The notes beneath the pieces were generated by a model, which was given only the letters and a program-made list of their open reading frames with translations, did not search any database and was not told the origin of the DNA. Position numbers and translations under genes: made by a program. DNA of 64,000 bases, taken from the NCBI GenBank assembly GCA_014376435.1, contig JACMRL010000022.1:44634-108633 (forward strand), given 5' to 3'. The stretch is from Bdellovibrio sp. (GTDB lineage: Bacteria; Bdellovibrionota; Bdellovibrionia; Bdellovibrionales; Bdellovibrionaceae). The stretch's first letter is position 1. Each line of letters starts with the position of its first letter. Positions 7,236-45,091 of the stretch are shown one piece after another.

Positions 7236-8705
7236 ATGAGTTCAGATCAGTCTCAGTTCGAGTTAGCACTCACATTTGACGATATATTACTAATTCCTCA
7301 GTACTCTGAAATTGTTCCGACCGAAGTAATTCCGAAAACTTTTTTTGCAAAAAATCTCTATTTAAATTCTCCATTAATTTCTGCCGCAATGGATACCGTG
7401 ACCGAGAATAAAATTGCTAGAATCATGTCGCAAAACGGTGGCTTAGGTATGATTCACAAAAATATGTCAATCGAAGCCCAAGCCTTCGAGGTTGAAAAAG
7501 TAAAAAAATACGAAAGCGGAATGATTCAAGATCCGATTACTTTATCTCCGGATCATTACGTCAGTGAAGCTTTAGAAATTATGGCGAAGTATTCAATTAG
7601 CGGCGTACCAATTACTTCTCAAGGAAAGCTGGTCGGTATTTTAACGAACCGTGATTTACGTTTCGAAACAAATATCAATCAACCGATTCGTCAGATCATG
7701 ACGAAAGAAAATTTAGTGACTACCGCAGAAGGTACGACTTTAGATCAAGCGAAAAAGATATTACAAAAACACCGTATTGAAAAATTACCCGTCGTAAATA
7801 AAGAGGGAATTCTAAAAGGCTTGATCACGATAAAAGATATCGAAAAAGCCGAAGCCTATCCGCAAGCGACGAAAGATTCGAAAGGTCGCCTGGTATCGGG
7901 TGCGGCGGTTGGCGTGGGCGGTGATTCTTTTGAAAGAGCTGAAGCATTACTAGCTGCCGGTGTTGACGTCATTTGTGTTGATACGGCTCATGGTCATTCT
8001 AAAAATGTCATTTTGATGGTGCAGCAAATCGCCGAAAAATATAAAGACGTGATCATCGTGGCGGGTAATGTGGTAACGAGTGAAGGTACGGAAGAACTGA
8101 TTAAAGCGGGCGCAGACGTTGTCAAAGTGGGCGTCGGTCCGGGCAGTATTTGTACAACGCGTGTAGTGGCCGGCGTCGGTGTTCCACAAATTTCGGCGAT
8201 TATAAAATGTGCGGGTACTGCAAAAAAATATGGTAAATCAATTATCGCCGATGGCGGCGTAAAATACTCTGGCGATATCACCAAAGCATTAGCGCTGGGT
8301 GCAAACACCGTGATGATCGGTAACTTACTGGCCGGGGCGGAAGAAGCTCCTGGTGAAACAATTTTATATCAAGGTCGTACATACAAAATGTATCGTGGGA
8401 TGGGTTCATTAGGCGCGATGGCGAAAGGGTCGAAAGATCGTTACGGCCAGCGTGACATCATGGATTTAGATAAATTAGTACCGGAAGGTATCGAAGGCAA
8501 AGTTCCGTACAAAGGAAATGCCAGCGGCATAATTCATCAGCTGATCGGTGGATTAAAATCAGGTATGGGATATATCGGCGCAAAAAATATTGATGAACTT
8601 CAACAGCGTGCGCGCTTTGTGCAAATCACGGGGCAGGGTTTGAAAGAATCGCACGTACACGATGTGAGTATTACCAAAGAAGCTCCGAACTATCGTTTAG
8701 AATAA
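7236..8705 (+). CDS. guaB: IMP dehydrogenase
   Basis: 489 aa with a CBS pair insert, the catalytic loop [11 protein letters not shown] and GGVKYSGD. Confidence 0.95.
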
Positions 8706-10296: not shown

Positions 10297-11139
10297 ATGA
10301 AAAAAATTATTTTTGTGATTTTTTTCCTTAAGCTCAGTTCTGCTTTGTCATATTATCAAGTCTTAGATCAGGTTGATCAGACAAATCAGTATTACATTAT
10401 TGATATGCGCGCAAGAAGTGGCAACGAAACTGAGTATTTCGAAAATTCAGTTCACTTCGAATGGCAACAGCTATCTCAATTGGGTCTACCGAGTCGCGGC
10501 TACATAAAAAGCAATGTTGATTCCTTAGTGAGTGATCTTTCGGATTTAGGAATTCATCCGGATAAAAAAATAGTGATCATCGGTCGAGGAATTCGTGGTC
10601 GAGGCGAAGAGGGACGCGTTGCATATACTTTAGTAAAAATAGGTTTTAAAGAAGTATTTATTTCAACAGGTCAATTTCTACGGGATCACGGCTTTAAATC
10701 TAAATCGAAAGCGCCGCCACATATTTTAAAATCAGCTTTATTTAAAGTTAAAATAAATAATGATTTGGCATTAAGTCGTGTTGATATGAAGTCTTTGCTA
10801 CGAGATAAACCGAAAAAAATTAGCTGTATCGATTTGCGGCCGAAGAATAATCTAGAACAAGCGTTTAATCTAAAATATTTTTGCAAAAAAATTGAATGGC
10901 GTTCATTTTTTACTCGAAACATGAAAATCGATTTGCTTATTGCTGCGGAACTGGATCGTCAGCAAATTAAAAAAGAAGACCAAATTATTTTACTTAGTGA
11001 AGCTGGCTTATCTTCCGGAGGTATAACGCTGGCCATGCGTGAACTGGGCTACCGGAAGGCCGTTAATTTTGAAGGTGGCTACTCGGACCTCAGAGCTCTG
11101 ATGTTTGATTCGAATATTTTGAGCGAACGTGCTAAATAA
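10297..11139 (+). CDS. tandem rhodanese-like domain protein, apparently lacking catalytic cysteines
   Basis: ATG at 10297 (MKKIIFVIFF, signal-like) is in frame with track ORF 10276. There are two rhodanese-homology-like halves. The active-site loop positions read IIGRGIRGRGEE and LLSEAGLSSGG, with no Cys. Confidence 0.4.
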   Translation: MKKIIFVIFFLKLSSALSYYQVLDQVDQTNQYYIIDMRARSGNETEYFENSVHFEWQQLSQLGLPSRGYIKSNVDSLVSDLSDLGIHPDKKIVIIGRGIRGRGEEGRVAYTLVKIGFKEVFISTGQFLRDHGFKSKSKAPPHILKSALFKVKINNDLALSRVDMKSLLRDKPKKISCIDLRPKNNLEQAFNLKYFCKKIEWRSFFTRNMKIDLLIAAELDRQQIKKEDQIILLSEAGLSSGGITLAMRELGYRKAVNFEGGYSDLRALMFDSNILSERAK

Positions 11140-35468: not shown

Positions 35469-38381
35469 ATGAAAAACTTAAAGATATTTATAGCGCTTTT
35501 TGCGACCGCGGTCACGATTAAATCATCAACGGCTTTAACGGCTGATCCGGTTCTTAAGAACTTTATCGATCAAAAAAATACGCTGATTGCCGACGCTCGG
35601 CAAATTACTTTTGTTGGACCCCGCTCGGGCGAAGGCTATTTCAGTGCCGACGGTAAAAAAATGATTTTTCAATCCGAGCGCGAGCCCGGGAATCCTTTTT
35701 ATCAAATGTATATTTTAGATTTAAAATCTGGCCAAACTTCTCGCGTCTCCACGGGGCAAGGTAAAACCACTTGTGGTTGGATCAAGCCTGATATGAAAAA
35801 AGTAATGTGGTCATCAACGCACTTAGATTCAAAAACAAAAGAAAAAATCAAAGGCGAATACGCCGCGCGCGCAAAACCCGTCAAGGGCCGTTACTCGTGG
35901 AGTTTCGATGATCAATTTGATATTTTTGAATCTGATCTGCAGGGTAAAAACGTTAAACGTTTAACTAAAGAACTTGGTTACGATGCAGAGGGTTCTTATT
36001 CTCCGGATGGTCAATGGATTGCTTTTGCTTCCAATCGCTCGTTATACAGTGATCAGTTTACGGAAGATGATAAAAAAGTTTTACAACGTGATCCATCTTA
36101 CGCGATGGAAATTTACATCATGAAAGCCGATGGCACGCAAGTTAAGCGTTTAACAAATTCTTTGGGCTATGACGGCGGACCTTTTTTTAGCGCGGACGGA
36201 AAAAAAATAACGTGGAGACGTTTTAATGCGGATGGCTCAAAAGCTGAAATCTACACAATGAATGTGGATGGTTCTGAACAAAAGCAAATCACCAGTCTTG
36301 GTTCAATGTCGTGGGCGCCATTTTTTCATCCGTCGGGTAAATATATAATTTTTGGCTCATCCGTTTTAGGTTATTCAAACTTTGAATTATTCATCGTGGA
36401 TTCTGAAGGAAAGCAGAAACCCGTTCGCGTGACTTTTGCAGATGGCTTCGACGGATTGGCAAGTTTTTCGCCCGATGGCCAAACTTTAACTTGGTCACAC
36501 CGTAATGAAAAAGGTGATAGCCAAATCTATTTAGCCTCTTGGAATCATGATGAGGCCTTAAAGCTTTTAAATTTATCTGATGCAATTTCGCCCGAGCAAT
36601 TAAGGCTGGGTTCCGATATCAATGAAAAAGACGTGCGTAATATCGTAAGCTATTTAGCCTCTGAAAAAATGCAAGGACGCGCGACAGGTTCTGCGGAAGA
36701 AAAAATCTACAGCACAGAAATCGCAAGGTTATTTAAATCTTTTGGATTAAGACCGGCATTTGGCGATGATTTCATCCAAGCCTTCGAATTTACTTCGGGA
36801 GTTTCAGCTACCGAAAACAATACGGCCGAATTAAAAGGTCGAACTCAAACTAAGTTGAATCGCGGTGATGATTACCAAGTACTTTCCTATTCTAAAGTGG
36901 GAGATTTTCAAGCTTTACCGATTGCTTTTGCCGGATACGGAATCGTTGCGCCCGCAACCGATAAGTTACCCGCATACGATTCGTTTAAAGAATTAGATGT
37001 AAAAGGAAAATGGGTTTTGGTATTGGATCATATTCCAGAACTACCGTCGCAAGAAATGAAACATAATCTTTTAAGTTATTCTCGTCCCCAGCATAAAATT
37101 ACCGTTGCTAAAAACCGCGGTGCCGCGGGCGTTATTTTCATTTCAGAAACATCTTTAAAAGATTTAAAGTTCGAAGGCAGTCTTTCAGAAAGCACTGTAC
37201 CGGTTATAAAAATTTCATCAAAAGTGATCGATCAAATATTAAAAAGTGCAGAATTAACCAACGGAATTAAATCTTACGATGATTTAAAAACACAATTTGA
37301 AACTTCAAAACAAACGGTGGGTTTTACTTTCAATTCAGAGTATTTAAGTGCACGCATTGATTTAAATTTTGAAAAATCAGTCGGGCGTAACGTGATTGCG
37401 GTTTTAGAGCCAACTAAAAAAGCTAAAGCCTCAAAAGCCATTTTGATTGGCGCTCACGGTGATCATTTAGGTTTGGGCGAGCGTACGGGTTCATCACTGG
37501 CGCGCGCTAAAGAAAAATCGAAAATTCATTTTGGCGCTGATGATAATGCTTCGGGCGTAGCGGGCGTGATCGAGCTTTCGAAGTATTTTTCGGAAAAACG
37601 GAATGAAATTAAAAAACCGATGTACTTTGCCGTTTGGTCCGGTGAAGAAGTGGGTGTTTTAGGTTCAAGCCACTTTGTCAAAGTTTGGAAAGAGCAAAAA
37701 AAATCTGAATTTAGCCAAAGCTTCGAAGCGGGTTTAAATATGGATATGATTGGCAGATTACGTGATCAGTTACAAGTGCAAGGCGTGGCTTCCGCGAAGC
37801 AATGGGTGGGTCTAAGTGAAGAAGTTGCTTTAATCTCGGGGGTTCCCTTAGCCGTCACTGCAGATCCTTATTTGCCGACCGATGCGATGAGTGTGTACGT
37901 AGCCGGTGTGCCATCAATTTCATTTTTTACGGGCTCGCACGAAGAATATCACACGCCACGTGATACGGCTGAAACTTTAAATTACCCGGGTTTAGTTCGT
38001 AGTATTGGTGTGGTAAAAACTTTTGCCGAAAAGCTTGTGACAGTTTCGACAACCGTAGTGAAATACGAAAAAGTTGAAGGTAACTCTGGTCAAAGAATGG
38101 AAGGCCGTAGCTTTCGTATTTACCTAGGCACGATTCCCGATTACAGCCAAGAAGGTGTTAAAGGAGTTCGTGTTTCAGGGGCTTCTAAAAATTCTCCGGC
38201 TGAAAAAGCCGGGGTCAAAACGGGTGATATTATTATTGAGTTTGCTAAAACAAAAATCGAAAATTTATACGATTATGTTTATACATTACAGGCCGTTAAA
38301 CCAAATATTTTAACCAAGATGAGCGTCATGAGAGACGGAAAAAAAATCGATTTAGATATTCTTCCGTTATTAAAAGAGTAA
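35469..38381 (+). CDS. multidomain secreted peptidase: TolB-like beta-propeller + M28 aminopeptidase + PDZ
   Basis: 970 aa with a signal peptide. PD40 repeats (YSPDGQWIAFASNR, FFSADGKKITW, FSPDGQTLTW), M28 motifs (HGDHLG, GADDNASGV, SGEEVGVLGS) and a C-terminal PDZ (SPAEKAGVKTGDIIIEF). Confidence 0.75.
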   Translation: MKNLKIFIALFATAVTIKSSTALTADPVLKNFIDQKNTLIADARQITFVGPRSGEGYFSADGKKMIFQSEREPGNPFYQMYILDLKSGQTSRVSTGQGKTTCGWIKPDMKKVMWSSTHLDSKTKEKIKGEYAARAKPVKGRYSWSFDDQFDIFESDLQGKNVKRLTKELGYDAEGSYSPDGQWIAFASNRSLYSDQFTEDDKKVLQRDPSYAMEIYIMKADGTQVKRLTNSLGYDGGPFFSADGKKITWRRFNADGSKAEIYTMNVDGSEQKQITSLGSMSWAPFFHPSGKYIIFGSSVLGYSNFELFIVDSEGKQKPVRVTFADGFDGLASFSPDGQTLTWSHRNEKGDSQIYLASWNHDEALKLLNLSDAISPEQLRLGSDINEKDVRNIVSYLASEKMQGRATGSAEEKIYSTEIARLFKSFGLRPAFGDDFIQAFEFTSGVSATENNTAELKGRTQTKLNRGDDYQVLSYSKVGDFQALPIAFAGYGIVAPATDKLPAYDSFKELDVKGKWVLVLDHIPELPSQEMKHNLLSYSRPQHKITVAKNRGAAGVIFISETSLKDLKFEGSLSESTVPVIKISSKVIDQILKSAELTNGIKSYDDLKTQFETSKQTVGFTFNSEYLSARIDLNFEKSVGRNVIAVLEPTKKAKASKAILIGAHGDHLGLGERTGSSLARAKEKSKIHFGADDNASGVAGVIELSKYFSEKRNEIKKPMYFAVWSGEEVGVLGSSHFVKVWKEQKKSEFSQSFEAGLNMDMIGRLRDQLQVQGVASAKQWVGLSEEVALISGVPLAVTADPYLPTDAMSVYVAGVPSISFFTGSHEEYHTPRDTAETLNYPGLVRSIGVVKTFAEKLVTVSTTVVKYEKVEGNSGQRMEGRSFRIYLGTIPDYSQEGVKGVRVSGASKNSPAEKAGVKTGDIIIEFAKTKIENLYDYVYTLQAVKPNILTKMSVMRDGKKIDLDILPLLKE

Positions 38382-39113
38382 TTAAAATTTTAAATCAGGA
38401 CATTTTTGCGTAAAGAATTTTTGTAAGTCAGCGCCCTGATATTTAAAACCGTAGTTGCCGTTGGCGTAACCTAGAAATTCCTTGTTGGTCAGTGAGCATG
38501 ATTTGCTTGAATTCGCTGAATGAATGATTGATTTATTATTCGCATGATCAAATCCGGTTCCACCCATTTTAAATCCGCCATCGACCCAAAAACCACGGGC
38601 CGGCATGATTTCGACTCCGCCTTTATTTTTTGGGGATAAAGGAAGTTCGGTAAAAGTGCCGGGAGTTAAACTTACGATTGAAAAATCAACCGCCGATAAT
38701 CTTAGCTCATGACCAGAAACCATTTTAATCGTCACATCATCATTATCTTCGATTGAGTAGTCAGGATAGTCAGTGATTAACGGGAAAAGAAAATAATCGC
38801 GGCTTGAGGTCGTTTTTGATGGATCACCATCACCATAAGAATTGAATACCATCAATTCGCCCGAATTTGAAAAATAATAATCGCGGTATTTTAAATCAAT
38901 AATATTTCGCGGGGTGATTGATAAAAAACAAACTCGTCTTTCTACGTCCCACTGCCGATTGATTTGGATATTTCCAGATCCCGTTAGTACATGTTCACAT
39001 TTTGCATTGGTGTAGGCCGCGTGCGCTTTGCTGCTAACGAACTGTGAGCCTAGAAGTATCGCCAATGTAGCCAGCGTAGCGGATGTAATTGAGCTTCGTA
39101 GTGGTATATTCAT
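38382..39113 (-). CDS. secreted hypothetical protein
   Basis: 243 aa with signal peptide ...LGSQFVSSKAHA. Confidence 0.5.
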   Translation of the reverse strand: MNIPLRSSITSATLATLAILLGSQFVSSKAHAAYTNAKCEHVLTGSGNIQINRQWDVERRVCFLSITPRNIIDLKYRDYYFSNSGELMVFNSYGDGDPSKTTSSRDYFLFPLITDYPDYSIEDNDDVTIKMVSGHELRLSAVDFSIVSLTPGTFTELPLSPKNKGGVEIMPARGFWVDGGFKMGGTGFDHANNKSIIHSANSSKSCSLTNKEFLGYANGNYGFKYQGADLQKFFTQKCPDLKF

Positions 39114-39230
39114 ATATTTTAGTCTGTCTTTTTTTGTCGCAGTTTGAAACCGACTCTGGTCTAGTTTTAGTCTGCCAAGCCCTAATTAAAATCGACGCTG
39201 TACACACGGAGCCTTAAGGTGATTTTCCTA

Positions 39231-39458
39231 ATGGAAAAAATTGAAATACAAAAAAAATTAGAAAAACGTAAAGCCTACCTCATCTGCATGATTATTTTCT
39301 TGGGGCTTTTTATACCCACGTTCTTATCGATGACCAGTCGCTACGGAGTTTCGGTTCCTCTGCAAGCCAGCTTTTTCTTTATGATCTTATTCGTGATGGC
39401 TATTTTGTATATTAAAGTGCAAAGAATCGAAGCGAAGATCAGTCACCTTCCTAAATAG
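39231..39458 (+). CDS. small membrane protein, hypothetical
   Basis: Track ORF 39219 (GTG) with an ATG at 39231. Two hydrophobic helices. Confidence 0.35.
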   Translation: MEKIEIQKKLEKRKAYLICMIIFLGLFIPTFLSMTSRYGVSVPLQASFFFMILFVMAILYIKVQRIEAKISHLPK

Positions 39459-39467
39459 GCAGTGCAA

Positions 39468-39641
39468 ATGTCGACAGATTATATTCTGGGTGATGATGAA
39501 AAAGAAGTTTTAAAACTTAAACTGCAACATGATTTGCGGCAGCCCGAGCAAGTAAAAGATTTTTTTAACGAGTGGGATTTTGCGAAAACTCACCCCGACT
39601 CCTACTTGGTAGCCCCGGCGGTGACTTCATATCATCGCTGA
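39468..39641 (+). CDS. 57-aa ORF, possible N-terminal remnant of a larger gene
   Basis: Below the track threshold; translated by hand as MSTDYILGDDEKEVLKLKLQHDLRQPEQ.... The first ~22 aa resemble the YxLGxxExExxRLxxQ N-terminus seen in some class-I SAM methyltransferases, but no methyltransferase core follows. Confidence 0.25.
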   Translation: MSTDYILGDDEKEVLKLKLQHDLRQPEQVKDFFNEWDFAKTHPDSYLVAPAVTSYHR

Positions 39642-39651
39642 CAAAAAGTAA

Positions 39652-40197
39652 TTATAAATCAGCATCTGCTCTTTTAGTTTTACATTTTTCTAAGTAATGA
39701 CCCAGTTCAGAGCAGGGAATGCGGCGATGTCCCCCCTCGGTTTGGTAACACTGAATTTGTCCGCGTTTAATTTCGCGGCGAACGGTGTTTTCGGAAACAC
39801 TCATATGTTCCTTTAATTTTACTACAAATTCTGGCAGTGAATAATCTTCTTCCGCTTTTTGTAAACTCTGTTTGAAAGTTGAAGCATCGGGAAGCCATTT
39901 TTTATTCTCTAAATGTTTATCAATATGAATCCACGCATTTTCTAACTGTTCGGCGGCGGCGTGAATTAAATCTTCTGATAAAATGGCAGATTTGCTAGGT
40001 TTGGAAGAAATGGAGGATTTGGAAGAATCAGTCGATGCTTTTTCTGACTGCAGCGGAATGTGTTTAAAATATCCGATGTCGGGAATTGAAAAAACTAAGT
40101 CGTTTGCGACCCTGCGGATCACGATCGGATAATCGAAACTTTTTTGATTTAATTTCTTCATGAAAAAATGATAGCCAAATTCTGCCAAATCTGACAC
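39652..40197 (-). CDS. HicB-like (UPF0150) N-terminal domain fused to an excisionase/MerR-type HTH
   Basis: YPIVIRRVANDLVFSIPDIGYF and LIHAAAEQLENAWIHIDKHLENKKWLPDAS look HicB-like. The C-terminal SVSENTVRREIKRGQIQCYQTEGGHRRIPCSEL looks like an excisionase-type HTH. The start is uncertain (GTG 40197 or ATG 40161). Confidence 0.5.
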   Translation of the reverse strand: MSDLAEFGYHFFMKKLNQKSFDYPIVIRRVANDLVFSIPDIGYFKHIPLQSEKASTDSSKSSISSKPSKSAILSEDLIHAAAEQLENAWIHIDKHLENKKWLPDASTFKQSLQKAEEDYSLPEFVVKLKEHMSVSENTVRREIKRGQIQCYQTEGGHRRIPCSELGHYLEKCKTKRADADL

Positions 40198-40211
40198 GAA
40201 AATTGCAAAAA

Positions 40212-40273
40212 TTTATGCTATAGGTCGAACGCAATATTAGCTAACTATTATTGCGTTCGACCTATAGCATAAA
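40212..40273. repeat. perfect 25-bp inverted repeat with a 12-nt spacer, filling the xis-like/int intergenic region
   Basis: Left arm TTTATGCTATAGGTCGAACGCAATA (40212..40236), spacer ttagctaactat, right arm TATTGCGTTCGACCTATAGCATAAA (40249..40273). It ends 3 nt before the int ATG. Confidence 0.9.
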
Positions 40274-40276
40274 AAG

Positions 40277-41197
40277 ATGGATCAGAATTTTCATAAAAAT
40301 AGGCAACAAATATCCATCATCGATAACAAAGAAGACATCGCGATCATCGGATCGTGGTTATTTCAAAAAGGTAAAAAAACCCAAATCTACTACCGCAGAA
40401 TCGTACGTGAGTTTTTTAAGTTTTATCCAAAGCTTACGATGCGTACCACGCAGATTACTCACTTAGCTTTATTCTTGAAAACCTTTAGCAACTATTCAGA
40501 TTCGACCCGAAACACTTACAAAAATGCCCTTTCATCTTTATTTACTTTTGCAACGAAGACGGGTTATTTAGAAAGGAATCCGGCCTTAGCTTTAGATAAT
40601 TTAAAAACTCCCGATAAAATCTATTCGAAAGTGCTTTCGCGCGAACAAGTCGAACGCATGATTCAGTTAGAAGAAAACCCACGCAATCATTTGATCTTAA
40701 ATATTCTTTATTTTACTGGGGTGCGCGTAGATGAAATCAGTCATTTAAAAAAATCGTCTTTTCATAATTCTGAAAACGGAATGATTATGATGGTGGAAGG
40801 TAAGGGTCGCAAAGTAAGATCAATTCATTTACCTAGCCATTTGTCAGATGCAATTATGCGCTACGCTTTTACATTAGATTCGACGGATTGTTTATTCACC
40901 AATGATCGACTGATTGATTTTGGAATCGAAATTTTTGAACGAAAGCCAATCAGTAATTCGCAAATATTTCGCATCGTTAAAGCCGCTGCTAAAAAAGCTA
41001 AGTTAAGTGTTCAACCTTCGCCGCATTGGCTACGTCATACGAGCGCCACGCACGCGATTGAAGCGGGTGCACCTATTCACGTGGTACAGAGATCACTGGG
41101 GCACGAGTCAATCTCGACCACGGGGAAGTATCTTGACCTTCGTCCTAAGGAATCTGTTGGGGATTATATTGCGCCGTTAAATAAAAGAACTTACTGA
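40277..41197 (+). CDS. tyrosine site-specific recombinase/integrase (XerC/D-like)
   Basis: 306 aa. Catalytic residues sit in FTGVRVDE (R), GKGRK (K), HWLRHTSATH (H-x-x-R), LGHESISTT (H) and GKYLDL (Y). Confidence 0.85.
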   Translation: MDQNFHKNRQQISIIDNKEDIAIIGSWLFQKGKKTQIYYRRIVREFFKFYPKLTMRTTQITHLALFLKTFSNYSDSTRNTYKNALSSLFTFATKTGYLERNPALALDNLKTPDKIYSKVLSREQVERMIQLEENPRNHLILNILYFTGVRVDEISHLKKSSFHNSENGMIMMVEGKGRKVRSIHLPSHLSDAIMRYAFTLDSTDCLFTNDRLIDFGIEIFERKPISNSQIFRIVKAAAKKAKLSVQPSPHWLRHTSATHAIEAGAPIHVVQRSLGHESISTTGKYLDLRPKESVGDYIAPLNKRTY

Positions 41198-41360
41198 TCG
41201 ACTTATTTAAATTTACGAGATTTTCTTGTGCGTCTCAGGTCGAGACAGCTTAAAATTGTCCGTAGGTTTTTAAAACTTTAACAATGTGCTGACCTGCTAA
41301 CAAATGTATTTCAATTCAACCCTAAAAAACCTGGCACTGATTACGCAATCGACTTAGCTT

Positions 41361-41873
41361 ATGAAATGGCGTGCGACTTTCTTAATATTACTATTTTCAA
41401 TCAACAGCTTAGCCAGCGAACTAAAAGTATTTGGTGAAGCGCCAAGCGGTGCTGAAGTCAGAATGCGCATTAGCTACCAATTAAGTTTATCAAGCTTTAC
41501 CTGCACCAGCGTTCGATTGCGAAATTGGCGTATTTCTCCCAAAGTTATTAATTTAGAGTATAAAATGCAAGGCATCTCAAAAGCTTTCTTGATTTCTGCG
41601 CCACTTAGAATTGACGAATGTTGGGCAGAATATACTTCGTTACCTAGTATTCAAGTCAAACTTCCAGGAACTTCGTTTGCGACAGATATTGGTATTAGAA
41701 GCGGGTCGGGTATTGCGACGGGTTCAAGTTCTGCTAATGTGGTTAAGATTCAACGTGTCTTATGCAAAAAAGTACAAACTCAGAAAGGATTAACGACCGC
41801 GTGTTCTTCAACGCCAGTTATGTTTGGTCCGTCCAACGAAGCCGAAATTTTAATTGAAGAAAAGTTAGATTAA
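41361..41873 (+). CDS. secreted hypothetical protein
   Basis: 170 aa with signal peptide MKWRATFLILLFSINSLA. Its stop codon lies in the 9-bp duplicated target of the downstream cassette. Confidence 0.45.
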   Translation: MKWRATFLILLFSINSLASELKVFGEAPSGAEVRMRISYQLSLSSFTCTSVRLRNWRISPKVINLEYKMQGISKAFLISAPLRIDECWAEYTSLPSIQVKLPGTSFATDIGIRSGSGIATGSSSANVVKIQRVLCKKVQTQKGLTTACSSTPVMFGPSNEAEILIEEKLD

Positions 41874-41880
41874 AAATTTA
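41872..41880. repeat. left copy of the putative 9-bp target-site duplication AAAAATTTA
   Basis: Identical 9-mer directly abutting the left TIR. Its partner is at 42877..42885. Confidence 0.65.
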
Positions 41881-41902
41881 GTAAGTGGTGTAAAAAACGG
41901 GG
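41881..41902. repeat. left terminal inverted repeat GTAAGTGGTGTAAAAAACGGGG
   Basis: The reverse complement of 42855..42876 is TTAAGTGGTGTAAAAAACGGGG, so the only mismatch is at the outermost base. Confidence 0.9.
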
Positions 41903-42065
41903 CTTGAGTTTCTCAGTAGAATCAAGGACTTCAAAGCCGATGATAATTTGGACTTAATAGCGAGCATATTGAGTTGTGCTTTTATGACTCTGAACGCAAA
42001 AGCCTAAGCTCATTGACTTAAGTGCTAATAAACCTTAACTATTTCTTGAAATACAGGGGGTATTC

Positions 42066-42455
42066 ATGAAATTAGTTGCCATCATTTTGGCTTTTATTGG
42101 TAGTTCCGCATTTGCTTCTGCCGACCGTTATGACTTACAAATGGATTTATACTTGAATGGAAAACACATCTCATCGCCCAACGCAAATGTTAAGGCTGGA
42201 GAGATTACGACTATTACTCAAAAAATAGACACAAAAGAAATTTCCATTTCATTTTTAGCAAATCTTAGGTCTATACAAAAGATTGACCTTATTTGGATGC
42301 CTTTTTCTGTTCGTATATATGATTTAAACGGTCAAGTGCTTCTGGCGGGAGACCATCAAATATATGCTAAAGAAAATGAACAAATGAATTTCACCGTAGG
42401 AAACAACGGAGATGAAGTTTCCTTGTCGGTTACTGCCAAAAAAGAATCTCTTTAG
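42066..42455 (+). CDS. small secreted hypothetical protein (cassette passenger)
   Basis: 129 aa. RBS GGGGG before the ATG, signal peptide MKLVAIILAFIGSSAFA, followed by an intrinsic terminator. Confidence 0.55.
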   Translation: MKLVAIILAFIGSSAFASADRYDLQMDLYLNGKHISSPNANVKAGEITTITQKIDTKEISISFLANLRSIQKIDLIWMPFSVRIYDLNGQVLLAGDHQIYAKENEQMNFTVGNNGDEVSLSVTAKKESL

Positions 42456-42483
42456 TTTTCGTCTTAAGATTGATGACTGAATT

Positions 42484-42512
42484 AGCCCGCCAATGAGCGG
42501 GCTTTTTCTTTT
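42484..42512 (+). terminator. intrinsic terminator
   Basis: The stem AGCCCGC (42484..42490) pairs with GCGGGCT (42497..42503), with loop caatga, followed by TTTTTCTTTT. Confidence 0.8.
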
Positions 42513-42554
42513 GTGAAATCTTCAGAATCGGGACTTTTTCCATTTAGTCCTGAT

Positions 42555-42779
42555 ATGAGAAATGCCCAAATTGGAAACCCAAATGTAATTGTAAGAGACC
42601 TGTCAACAAAAGATGATTACTTCATTGATGAAGTTGTTATTCCAGCAGATGAGCTGACTCTTGACGGTATATCAGAACGTGAGCTTGAAGACTTTATTTT
42701 GTATTGGAGAACTACTTTTGAAACAGTAAAAGTGGTGGAATTTTCCCCCTGTTTCAGGGAAGTTGTCTCAAGGTCATGA
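42555..42779 (+). CDS. small acidic hypothetical protein (cassette passenger)
   Basis: The track ORF starts with GTG at 42513, directly on the terminator T-run. The ATG at 42555 (MRNAQIG...) is more plausible. No signal peptide. Confidence 0.3.
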   Translation: MRNAQIGNPNVIVRDLSTKDDYFIDEVVIPADELTLDGISERELEDFILYWRTTFETVKVVEFSPCFREVVSRS

Positions 42780-42854
42780 GATTATTAATAATCGGTTTAT
42801 TTAGTTCCTATCTACACTTAGACAATTTCCTGTCTCAAAATTAGCCTTTAAAAA

Positions 42855-42876
42855 CCCCGTTTTTTACACCACTTAA
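42855..42876. repeat. right terminal inverted repeat CCCCGTTTTTTACACCACTTAA
   Basis: Reverse complement of the left TIR with 21/22 match. Confidence 0.9.
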
Positions 42877-42885
42877 AAAAATTTA
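42877..42885. repeat. right copy of the putative 9-bp target-site duplication AAAAATTTA
   Basis: Identical 9-mer directly abutting the right TIR. Confidence 0.65.
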
Positions 42886-43404
42886 GTTATTTAAGAACTT
42901 TCATTTTGAAACACGAACTTCATGCAAAGCTTTATCTTTGCACGCGGTGGCGCTTGGGTTAGCGGCGATAAAAGCTAAATTTGGCATTGGGAACTTAGGC
43001 CATGCAACTTTGCCGACTAGACAACGATTAAAGCAAAATTTCCGTAGTTAGTGGTGCATTCTAGACAAGATGAAACGGTGGATTTAAAACAGGCCACAAA
43101 TTTTATGTCCCATCTACAGAAACAAAAAATATCTACAAAACTTTTAATTTTAAAAAAATTCAGTCACAAGTCTTTGCCAATTTCCTTGGTTCATTAGGAC
43201 TGTCGAACTTCTTACCAGCGACGGCGATTGTCTTATTGTAAATCGTTTGGTCGCCCTGAAGTCTTCTAATCAAGTTAAACCCGTTTTAAATTTGGAATGC
43301 TTCTGGCTACATAGATTCTTGATGGATCGTTTAGTTTGAAAAAAGGGTAATGAAGCTCGCAGACATCTGAACGATATCAATTTATCAAAAAAAAGAGGAG
43401 TAAA

Positions 43405-44023: not shown

Positions 44024-45091
44024 ATGAAAACTCCCCCAATTTCGATCGTGAAATCTGTTAAATTTAAAGCTAAACCTGAAGCCACAACCTTGGGTTTTGG
44101 TAAGTATTTTACCGATCATATGTTCACCGCAAAATACTCGGTTGAAAAAGGTTGGCATCAAGCAGAAGTTGGACCCTATAAATCTTTTGAAATTGACCCG
44201 GGCGCAAGCGTTTTACATTACGGCCAAGCATTGTTTGAGGGAATGAAAGCATTTAAACAAGAAAATGAAAAAGTTGTTTTATTTAGACCTGAATTTAATT
44301 GGCATCGCATGGTGGCGGGGGCGGATCGTTTATGTATGGAAGCTCCACCCAAAGATTTATTTTTAAACGGAATTAAAGAGCTCGTAAAAATTGACCAAGA
44401 GTGGATTCCAGATCAGCCAGGTTCATTATATATTCGTCCAACCCTAGTGGGCACAGAAGCTTTTTTAGGCGTACGTCCGTCAAATGAAATGTTATTCTTC
44501 GCAATCTTATCACCGGTTTCCTCTTACTACGCTGAAGGTAGCGCGCCCGTAAATATTTGGGTCGAAACAAATTACCTTCGCGCCGCGCCCGGCGGATTAG
44601 GCGCAACGAAAGCCGCGGCAAACTATGCGGTCAGTTTAAAAGCGGCTCTGGATGCGAAGAAAAAAGGTTACTCACAAGTTCTGTGGCTTGATTTTTCGCG
44701 CGAATATATCGAAGAAGTCGGAACCATGAATGTGTTCTTCGTTTTTGAAAATGAAATTGTGACGCCTTCTTTAGATGGGACCATCTTGGGCGGAGGAGTA
44801 CGTCATAGCGTGATCCAACTTTTAAAATTATGGAATCTGCCAATCAGCGAGAGAAAACTAAAATTATCTGAGGTGTTAGAGGCTTCTAAAAACGGAAAAT
44901 TAAAAGAAGCTTTCGGAACCGGAACGGCTGCCGTGATCAGCCCAATCGGGGAACTTGCGACCGAGTCTTGGAAAATCAATTTAACCAACAACGGCCAGCA
45001 GGGTGAGCTATCTAAAAAAATCTACGACGAGTTAACCGGCGTTCAGTACGGTCGTCGTGAAGATAAATTAGGTTGGCTACAACCTCTTTAA
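44024..45091 (+). CDS. ilvE: branched-chain amino acid aminotransferase (class IV, long form)
   Basis: 355 aa. Contains HYGQALFEGMKAF, LYIRPTLVGTE, the PLP Lys context GATKAAANYA and EEVGTMNVFFV. Confidence 0.9.
   Translation: MKTPPISIVKSVKFKAKPEATTLGFGKYFTDHMFTAKYSVEKGWHQAEVGPYKSFEIDPGASVLHYGQALFEGMKAFKQENEKVVLFRPEFNWHRMVAGADRLCMEAPPKDLFLNGIKELVKIDQEWIPDQPGSLYIRPTLVGTEAFLGVRPSNEMLFFAILSPVSSYYAEGSAPVNIWVETNYLRAAPGGLGATKAAANYAVSLKAALDAKKKGYSQVLWLDFSREYIEEVGTMNVFFVFENEIVTPSLDGTILGGGVRHSVIQLLKLWNLPISERKLKLSEVLEASKNGKLKEAFGTGTAAVISPIGELATESWKINLTNNGQQGELSKKIYDELTGVQYGRREDKLGWLQPL

Follow-up and report, generated by a model that had tools for sequence, protein, structure and literature searches.

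A 996-bp Transposase-Less Element in a Bdellovibrio Genome, Very Probably an Internal-Deletion Derivative of a Passenger-Carrying Insertion Sequence

A 64,000-nucleotide stretch of the Bdellovibrio sp. assembly GCA_014376435.1 (contig JACMRL010000022.1, positions 44,634 to 108,633), called the window here, contains a 996-bp segment at positions 41881-42876 of the window. The segment is bounded by terminal inverted repeats (TIRs) and has no transposase gene. An earlier interpretation, made from the letters alone (the sequence-only reading), described it as a mobile cassette carrying two passenger genes and offered an invertible DNA switch as an alternative. The locus thus raises the question of what kind of element this is, where it came from, and whether its genes were gathered as cargo. 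Comparison with related elements indicates that the segment is very probably a defective, transposase-less internal-deletion derivative of a 2.5-2.9-kb passenger-carrying insertion sequence (IS) of Bdellovibrionota-type bacteria.

Element Ends, Full-Length Relatives and the Internal Deletion

The two ends can be read directly. Positions 41881-41902 are GTAAGTGGTGTAAAAAACGGGG, and positions 42855-42876 are CCCCGTTTTTTACACCACTTAA, the reverse complement of the first arm save for the outermost base. The same 9-mer, AAAAATTTA, abuts both arms. The 22-bp TIRs (21/22) and the 9-bp flanking duplication that had been proposed for this locus are therefore present. The inverted repeat is perfect over 21 nt, and the length of the full TIR, 25 nt, was set by comparison with the related elements described below, whose consensus is TTAAGTGGTGTAAAAAACGGGGCTT. 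The two arms agree at 23 of 25 positions with each other and each at 24 of 25 with the consensus. A repeat finder lengthens the arms to 33 nt at 88%, because the AAATTT within the 9-bp duplication is itself palindromic. Even with up to three mismatches permitted, the window has just two occurrences of the 21-mer core, TAAGTGGTGTAAAAAACGGGG, one per strand; apart from the two arms, no copy of the TIR was seen in the window. The stop codon of an upstream open reading frame (ORF) of 170 aa, TAA at 41871-41873, shares its last two bases with the start of the left duplication, in agreement with the earlier placement of the insertion at this stop codon. The ORF would end identically in the reconstructed empty site, GTTAGATTAAAAATTTAGTTATTTAAG. 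A Logan contig (L001, run SRR9661224) represents the same strain, being 99.95% identical over 7,878 bp, and has the 996-bp segment in the same orientation.

The same ends are found elsewhere on elements that do possess a transposase. An 18-mer from the repeat was scanned against 185,579 species-representative genomes and gave 38 stretches. Four matches are in the Bdellovibrionaceae metagenome-assembled genome ACE_BDE1 (JAHBUV010000001.1), where they form two pairs about 2.9 kb apart. These pairs bound copies A and B, each of 2,928 bp, which are 100% identical and lie 1.9 Mb apart in opposite orientations. One copy is flanked by the duplication TAATTTTTA and the other by TATTTTTTA. The identity of the two copies was checked and stops at the repeats, so the 25-bp ends are the element boundaries; since the copies are fully identical, transposition in that genome was recent. 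The remaining 18-mer matches are irrelevant. Those in Flavobacterium all come from the same orthologous site of one conserved coding gene; the others outside Bdellovibrionaceae are singletons with no extension past the 18-mer.

A metagenome scan added a 2,641-bp element with the duplication TAATTTATA (L041, WBZN01000034.1) and a further copy at a contig end (L040). A search with the largest protein of the element identified approximately 20 relatives at 48-96% identity, many of them on contigs of about 2.5-3.5 kb, as expected of repeats. Four additional full-length elements have 2,794 bp (L046/L047, duplication AATTTAATA), 2,628 bp (L048, TAAAGAAGG), 2,508 bp (L049-L051, amid a phage-like run of small genes, AATGAAATA), and 2,929 bp (L053, 8-bp duplication TAAAATAA). 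Together with copies A and B and the element of L041, seven full-length insertions at different sites are thus bounded by the same TIR. Six of these sites, like the window site, have a 9-bp duplication, and the seventh has one of 8 bp. The duplications are AT-rich at the window site and at all but one of the seven. Interpretation of the TIRs and the duplication as a signature of transposition is upheld, as the same ends bound transposase-bearing elements with duplications of their own. An IS with these ends that encodes a transposase, and further copies of the TIR in relatives, had been named as things to look for, and both exist in Bdellovibrionota-type contigs. A scan of viral contigs with the TIR and a tblastn search of plasmids with the family transposase each gave 0 matches.

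Some of the insertion sites have features of their own. The insertion in L041 splits a gene for a Walker-A (FtsK/HerA-like) ATPase, the halves of which (7259-7738 and 10431-10712) flank the element, and the split gene adjoins a DNA methyltransferase gene. In L049 (1-9336), the element lies within a dense one-strand run of ORFs of 40-160 aa that is phage- or prophage-like in appearance. This insertion was recovered from three sequencing runs.

The full elements share one layout. In the orientation of the transposase gene, they consist of the left TIR with a leader of about 125 nt, the transposase gene, two middle ORFs, a terminal gene for an exported protein, and the right TIR. The middle ORFs, one on the plus strand (115-133 aa) and a convergent one on the minus strand (126-197 aa), are hypervariable between elements. 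They overlap slightly, are present in every full-length element, and have diverged almost beyond recognition between elements whose transposases are 56-96% identical. No Pfam or PADLOC match was found for the pair. The terminal gene encodes a 130-aa signal-peptide protein on the minus strand in the elements ISA and IS46, a 106-108-aa lipoprotein in IS41 and IS49, a 149-aa lipoprotein in IS53, and a 164-aa hydrophobic protein in IS48.

Against ISA, the window element aligns in three collinear blocks. The first, 41878-41913, corresponds to the right end of the full elements; beyond it, the subterminal sequence still resembles the right ends of relatives as far as about 41938. The second, 42060-42508, contains the passenger gene and its terminator and is 72% identical in nucleotides to ISA 2310-2760. 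The third, 42762-42876, corresponds to the first 116 nt or so of the left end and is 83-88% identical to ISA, IS46, and IS41. This left-end similarity ends after ...CCTTGAGACAAC, at element position 115. The ATG of the transposase gene in the relatives is at about position 151, some 35 nt further, so that the deletion junction is just short of the ribosome-binding site and start codon of that gene. Between the second and third blocks, the window element has 253 bp of unmatched sequence where the relatives hold approximately 2.2 kb. Neither blastn nor tblastn matched this stretch to the fetched loci or to other parts of the window. The positions of all features are given in Table 1.

Table 1. 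Positions of the parts of the 996-bp element and its flanks in the window, with the middle ORFs of full-length relatives in the last row.
Feature	Position	Strand	Remark
Left target-site duplication, AAAAATTTA	41872-41880		Identical 9-mer at both TIRs; seven full-length relatives with their own 8-9-bp duplications
Passenger-proximal TIR ('right' end of full-length relatives), GTAAGTGGTGTAAAAAACGGGGCTT	41881-41905	+	24/25 to consensus
Passenger gene, 129 aa	42066-42455	+	Sec-type signal MKLVAIILAFIGSSAFASA cut before D; all-beta mature part
Intrinsic terminator of passenger gene	42484-42513	+	AGCCCGC-loop-GCGGGCT, then T-run; from terminator scan; inside ISA-aligned block
Unmatched stretch, 253 bp	42509-42761	+	Holds most of 88-aa ORF
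88-aa acidic ORF	42513-42779	+	Last six codons are IS left-end sequence
Subterminal transposase-proximal ('left') end	42762-42851	-	Deletion junction at inner edge
Transposase-proximal TIR, TTAAGTGGTGTAAAAAACGGGGTTT (minus strand)	42852-42876	-	24/25 to consensus
Right target-site duplication, AAAAATTTA	42877-42885		Direct reading
Middle ORF pair in full-length relatives	ISA 1317-2275 (L018+L014); L041 9153-9934; L046 6212-7043; L049 6066-6800; L053 1395-2294		

The absence of a transposase from the 996 bp holds, as neither the ORF list nor tblastn with the cognate transposase gave anything there; with the same query, no transposase remnant was found anywhere in the window. Rfam returned nothing in or near the element. 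The proposed 129-aa ORF, its intrinsic terminator, and the small acidic ORF are all where they had been placed. The description of the segment as a cassette carrying passenger genes stands in part. It is a transposase-less element with a passenger, but it was not assembled around its cargo, as the passenger gene is already part of the full-length form.

The Family Transposase and the History of the Element

The full-length elements encode a protein of 356-367 aa in a single ORF without a frameshift. Pfam has no match for it. The NCBIfam IS1 model NF033558 gives 42.3 bits (E 7.9e-11) against a cut-off of 100 and covers model positions 8-133 of 199, and the IS1/IS1595 zinc-binding domain NF050000 gives 25.6 bits against a cut-off of 28. 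When 14 family members are aligned, all of them share residues C42, C45, D124, D211, and E233. For profile comparison, the InsAB' protein of IS1A was rebuilt from a RefSeq plasmid record, and hhalign matched it to the family with E 6.7e-5 and a probability of 64% over 189 columns. D211 and E233 align with the second D and the E of IS1A, and a GR(K/R)xLxxxK motif after the E is common to both. The AlphaFold2 model of the transposase (mean predicted local distance difference test score, pLDDT, 79) has the beta1-3/alpha/beta4/alpha/beta5 order of an RNase-H-like core, and its best matches in the PDB are all DDE transposases or integrases, namely ISCth4, Metnase, Mu, and retroviral intasomes. From its sequence profile and modeled fold, the protein appears to be a divergent IS1-like DDE transposase, short of a certified IS1 member.

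The likeness to the IS1 family, represented by IS1A of Enterobacteriaceae, extends to the 9-bp duplication in AT-rich targets, to an N-terminal CxxC...CxxC zinc finger followed by a helix-turn-helix (HTH), and to a second D and an E that lie close together (21 intervening residues, 24 in IS1A). Unlike IS1A, the family transposase is a single ORF without the insA/insB frameshift. It exceeds the IS1A transposase by about 130 aa, its catalytic core contains an insertion, and a long helix forms its C terminus. The ends of the family do not begin with the IS1-type GGT... (the IS1 end was read from L057/query), and the full elements have 2.5-2.9 kb in place of 768 bp. Some IS1 subgroups in ISfinder are also single-ORF, and thus the single-ORF state is compatible with the IS1 family.

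Several points weigh against a derivation of the 996-bp segment from this family. The transposase is below the NCBIfam IS1 cut-off (42 vs 100 bits) and has no Pfam match; because of this, the chemistry ascribed to the family rests on remote homology and fold. The relatives are just 72-88% identical to the window element, and its direct parent is not among them. The outermost TIR base varies among copies, yet it is complementary between the two ends in all but the window element (G vs T), where the G of the left arm breaks the symmetry of all other copies. For the organism of the window, neither a full-length copy nor a second short copy was found, and its species was not matched in the scan of species-representative genomes. 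An empty site was also not found for this organism, the sole other contig being L001 of the same strain. Exact look-ups of the 129-aa protein and of the neighboring DUF1176 protein return the same strain alone, and a search of 5.8 billion protein clusters gave no homologue of the upstream 170-aa ORF, which makes that flank an orphan.

With the derivation by internal deletion retained, a history of the element can be outlined. The family transposase would bind the 25-bp TIRs and cut an AT-rich target with a 9-bp stagger, as its family suggests, and gap repair would then yield the flanking duplication. A copy inserted just past the stop codon of the 170-aa orphan ORF, leaving AAAAATTTA on either side. 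About 1.5-1.9 kb of the interior has been lost; the transposase gene and the middle ORF of the plus strand are gone, as is the greater part of the middle ORF of the minus strand. The element retains both ends, the gene for a predicted Sec-exported all-beta passenger protein with its terminator, and a short truncated ORF. The near-intact ends could in principle allow movement by a helper transposase of the same family.

The order of these events can be argued both ways. It is possible, though on present evidence tentative, that the deletion arose elsewhere and that the 996-bp form was then moved here in trans by the transposase of a full-length copy in the same cell. This would be a special case of the internal-deletion explanation and is not exclusive of it. 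Consistent with such movement, both TIRs are close to the consensus, 115 nt and about 60 nt of subterminal sequence have been kept, and the duplication is perfect (9/9). The family is active elsewhere, as the identical copies A and B of ACE_BDE1 indicate. In addition, an end has decayed in a related relic (L044, described below), so the preservation seen here suggests a recent event or continued use of the ends. However, one copy of the short form is known, with the exact-protein look-up giving a single locus in a single strain, and the window has no helper transposase. None of the transposase-bearing contigs that were fetched comes from SRR9661224, the sample of the strain. An intact duplication is equally expected from a full-length insertion followed by loss of the interior. 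Because a single copy is known, deletion in situ is a slightly simpler account than deletion before arrival.

Passenger Gene, Second Reading Frame and Surrounding Islet

The 129-aa passenger gene is real. Its product is 59% identical to the passenger protein of ISA and 53% to that of IS46, which have the same position and orientation. The AlphaFold2 model has a pLDDT of 86 and ten strands, with low confidence for residues 1-17. A filter-free profile search returned 513 representatives at E <= 1e-3, nearly all of about 130 aa. Close homologues are present in B. bacteriovorus CP002930 and on other contigs without IS ends, among unrelated neighbors. The ratio of nonsynonymous to synonymous substitution rates (dN/dS) is 0.02-0.19 in the family, indicating strong constraint. 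The window copy is an outlier, with dN 0.30-0.38 to every other member and dN/dS 0.19-0.44. It is intact but fast-evolving, or else belongs to a distinct lineage.

The searches give little indication of what the protein does. The window copy has no Pfam, NCBIfam, or PADLOC family, and a PDB sequence-profile search returned nothing. Foldseek against the PDB gave no natural fold match, the sole match being a de novo designed beta protein (template modeling score, TM, 0.49). A sub-threshold Pfam match to the start of the Secretin domain, over some 28 residues, was seen in five of six close homologues and not in the window copy; a similarity this weak supports no conclusion. It is precisely in this Secretin-like stretch (alignment A1, residues 87-114) that the window copy has diverged. 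The same caution applies to the JGI label 'Flp pilus assembly secretin CpaC' on P0040, a 132-aa member of the passenger family.

The passengers of ISA and IS46 resemble each other less than each resembles a copy that lies on another contig, outside any complete element. Synonymous divergence (dS) is 0.66 between ISA and L054, a chromosomal copy without IS ends, and 0.37 between IS46 and L044, a decayed IS46-like relic, while it is 1.26 between ISA and IS46. Despite this divergence of the passengers, the transposase genes of ISA and IS46 are 93% identical in DNA. As read from the substitution rates, the pattern suggests repeated exchange or re-capture of the passenger. The relic (L044, 190-950) is a one-ended fossil with a decayed right TIR, an intact 130-aa passenger, and part of a middle ORF, followed by unrelated chromosomal genes. 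As a second relic with the passenger and without the transposase, it indicates that passengers have outlasted the transposase more than once.

The small acidic ORF of 88 aa has a different character. Most of it falls in the 253 bp without a match, and its frame runs on over the deletion junction, so that its last six codons consist of left-end sequence. Its codon score is 0.00, where host genes score 0.35 +/- 0.10 and off-frame sequence scores -0.70. In position, orientation, and spacing after the passenger terminator, it resembles the minus-strand middle ORFs (126-197 aa) of the full elements, and its start corresponds to theirs. BLAST gave no link to the middle ORFs of relatives, and no homologue was found in related elements or loci, nor any match in Pfam, NCBIfam, or PADLOC. 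The ORF is probably the 5' stump of a variable middle ORF that the deletion fused to the left end, and not cargo.

The sequence-only reading had counted this ORF as a second cargo gene and had suggested, as speculation, that the two inner ORFs are a secreted effector and its cytosolic immunity protein. A functional pair of this type is very unlikely. The arrangement does have a signal-peptide ORF followed by a small acidic ORF on the same strand, and the frame of the acidic ORF scores clearly above its five alternative frames. However, an ORF that lacks a recognizable relative and reads across a deletion junction does not bear out a role as cargo, and a terminator separates it from the passenger gene. 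In addition, homologues of the secreted protein stand alone among unrelated chromosomal neighbors (L042-L044 and L054-L056), with no conserved partner.

The surroundings of the element bear on the switch alternative. The region 38382-43404, between a large peptidase gene (35469-38381) and the DUF1176 gene with an aminotransferase gene (44024-45091), holds a tyrosine recombinase (40277-41197), a divergent excisionase-type HTH protein (39652-40197), and several orphan ORFs, among them the upstream 170-aa ORF, which has a signal peptide. It looks like a small integrative islet that encloses the 996-bp cassette, and no convincing att-like direct repeats were found around it.

The recombinase, 0.7 kb upstream, was the basis for supposing that the 996 bp is an invertible segment, flipped so as to switch co-transcription of the cargo. 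This is scarcely credible, although the enzyme is Xer/integron-integrase-like, the repeats have inverted orientation, and there is no terminator between the upstream ORF and the segment. Inversion creates no flanking direct repeats, yet the 9-bp duplication is present. At seven other sites these repeats enclose DDE elements, each with a different duplication and none with a homologue of the recombinase in its vicinity, and the interior is collinear with elements of this type. Both available assemblies of the strain show one orientation. The recombinase itself matches tyrosine invertases weakly (E about 1e-7, 31-32 bits against cut-offs of about 220), and its place beside an excisionase-type HTH protein fits an integrative islet. 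The suggestion is therefore rejected. That the inverted repeat arose by chance, without biological meaning, can be dismissed outright: apart from the AT-rich, low-complexity nature of the 9-mer nothing favors it, 0.01 matches to TAAGTGGTGTAAAAAACGGGG are expected by chance, two matches occurred in 0 of 100 shuffles, recurrence of a given 9-mer of such composition at a fixed abutting position has a chance of about 2e-5, and the same 25-mer bounds transposase-bearing elements elsewhere.

Place Among Known Elements and Meaning for Bdellovibrionota

A mobile insertion cassette (MIC) has been defined by IS-type inverted repeats, the absence of a transposase, one or more passenger genes, a target duplication, and activation by the cognate transposase (PMC4337579, PMC3913671, PMC3129680). 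The window element was compared with MIC231, derived from IS231 (Bacillus cereus), with the TnXax1-derived MICs of Xanthomonas, and with the qnrD mic. Like these, it has IS-type ends around a passenger gene, no transposase, and a duplication of the parental length. The structural features of a MIC, namely the ends, the duplication length, the absence of a transposase, and coding sequence that does not serve transposition, are thus all found in it. Because both ends are near-intact and movement by a helper is possible in principle, the element may be assigned to the MIC type by its structure, an assignment that leaves mobilization in trans to one side. Mobilization of MIC231 in trans was shown by experiment, whereas the window element is known from its sequence. 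The Xanthomonas MICs have many copies and the window element a single known one. Its parental family is IS1-like and not IS4/IS231 or Tn3. In addition, the passenger is already part of the autonomous element, which plainly makes the window element a product of deletion.

The full-length relatives (ISA/B, IS41, IS46, IS48, IS49, and IS53) can be set beside another class. A transporter IS (tIS), as Siguier, Gagnevin and Chandler 2009 (cited in PMC3129680) reportedly used the term for the IS1595 family and its relation to IS1, is an IS with passenger genes. The relatives carry a transposase and other genes within one pair of TIRs and are tISs in this sense, and the transposase has an IS1/IS1595-type N-terminal zinc domain. 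Points of difference are the three extra ORFs of the family, including the hypervariable convergent pair and the gene for an exported protein, and a score above threshold for no curated IS model. The window element has no transposase, and the comparison with a tIS applies to the relatives alone. Like a miniature inverted-repeat transposable element (MITE), the window element is non-autonomous, bounded by TIRs, flanked by a duplication, and descended from an IS that lost its interior. MITEs span tens to a few hundred bp, do not code, and are present in many copies, while the window element has an intact gene with a terminator and one known copy. At 996 bp and coding, it is too long for the label MITE, which was rejected.

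The element family and its host group are new, while MICs, transporter ISs, and the decay of ISs are already well known, and these general concepts are unchanged by the finding. What can now be given for the family is its ends (25-bp TIR), the length of its duplication (9 bp), and an apparent preference for AT-rich targets. Since the Pfam and NCBIfam models do not call this IS family, such elements and their relics will be missed in annotations of Bdellovibrionota. The 996-bp element offers a natural minimal substrate, two ends with a marker-sized interior, for transposition tests of the family. The secreted all-beta family of about 130 aa is transposon-borne and outlives the loss of the transposase, which hints at a benefit to the host.

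Across the family, the exported cargo includes small lipoproteins of two types, a membrane protein, and the secreted all-beta protein of 130 aa. It could be proposed, although this is doubtful at present, that an undescribed IS1-like transporter IS family of the predatory Bdellovibrionota specializes in genes for exported proteins, that the passenger is domesticated or exchanged with chromosomal paralogues after loss of the transposase, and that the cassette is a MIC mobilizable in trans. If this were true, the family would be a dedicated vehicle that shuffles cell-envelope and secreted proteins among predators.

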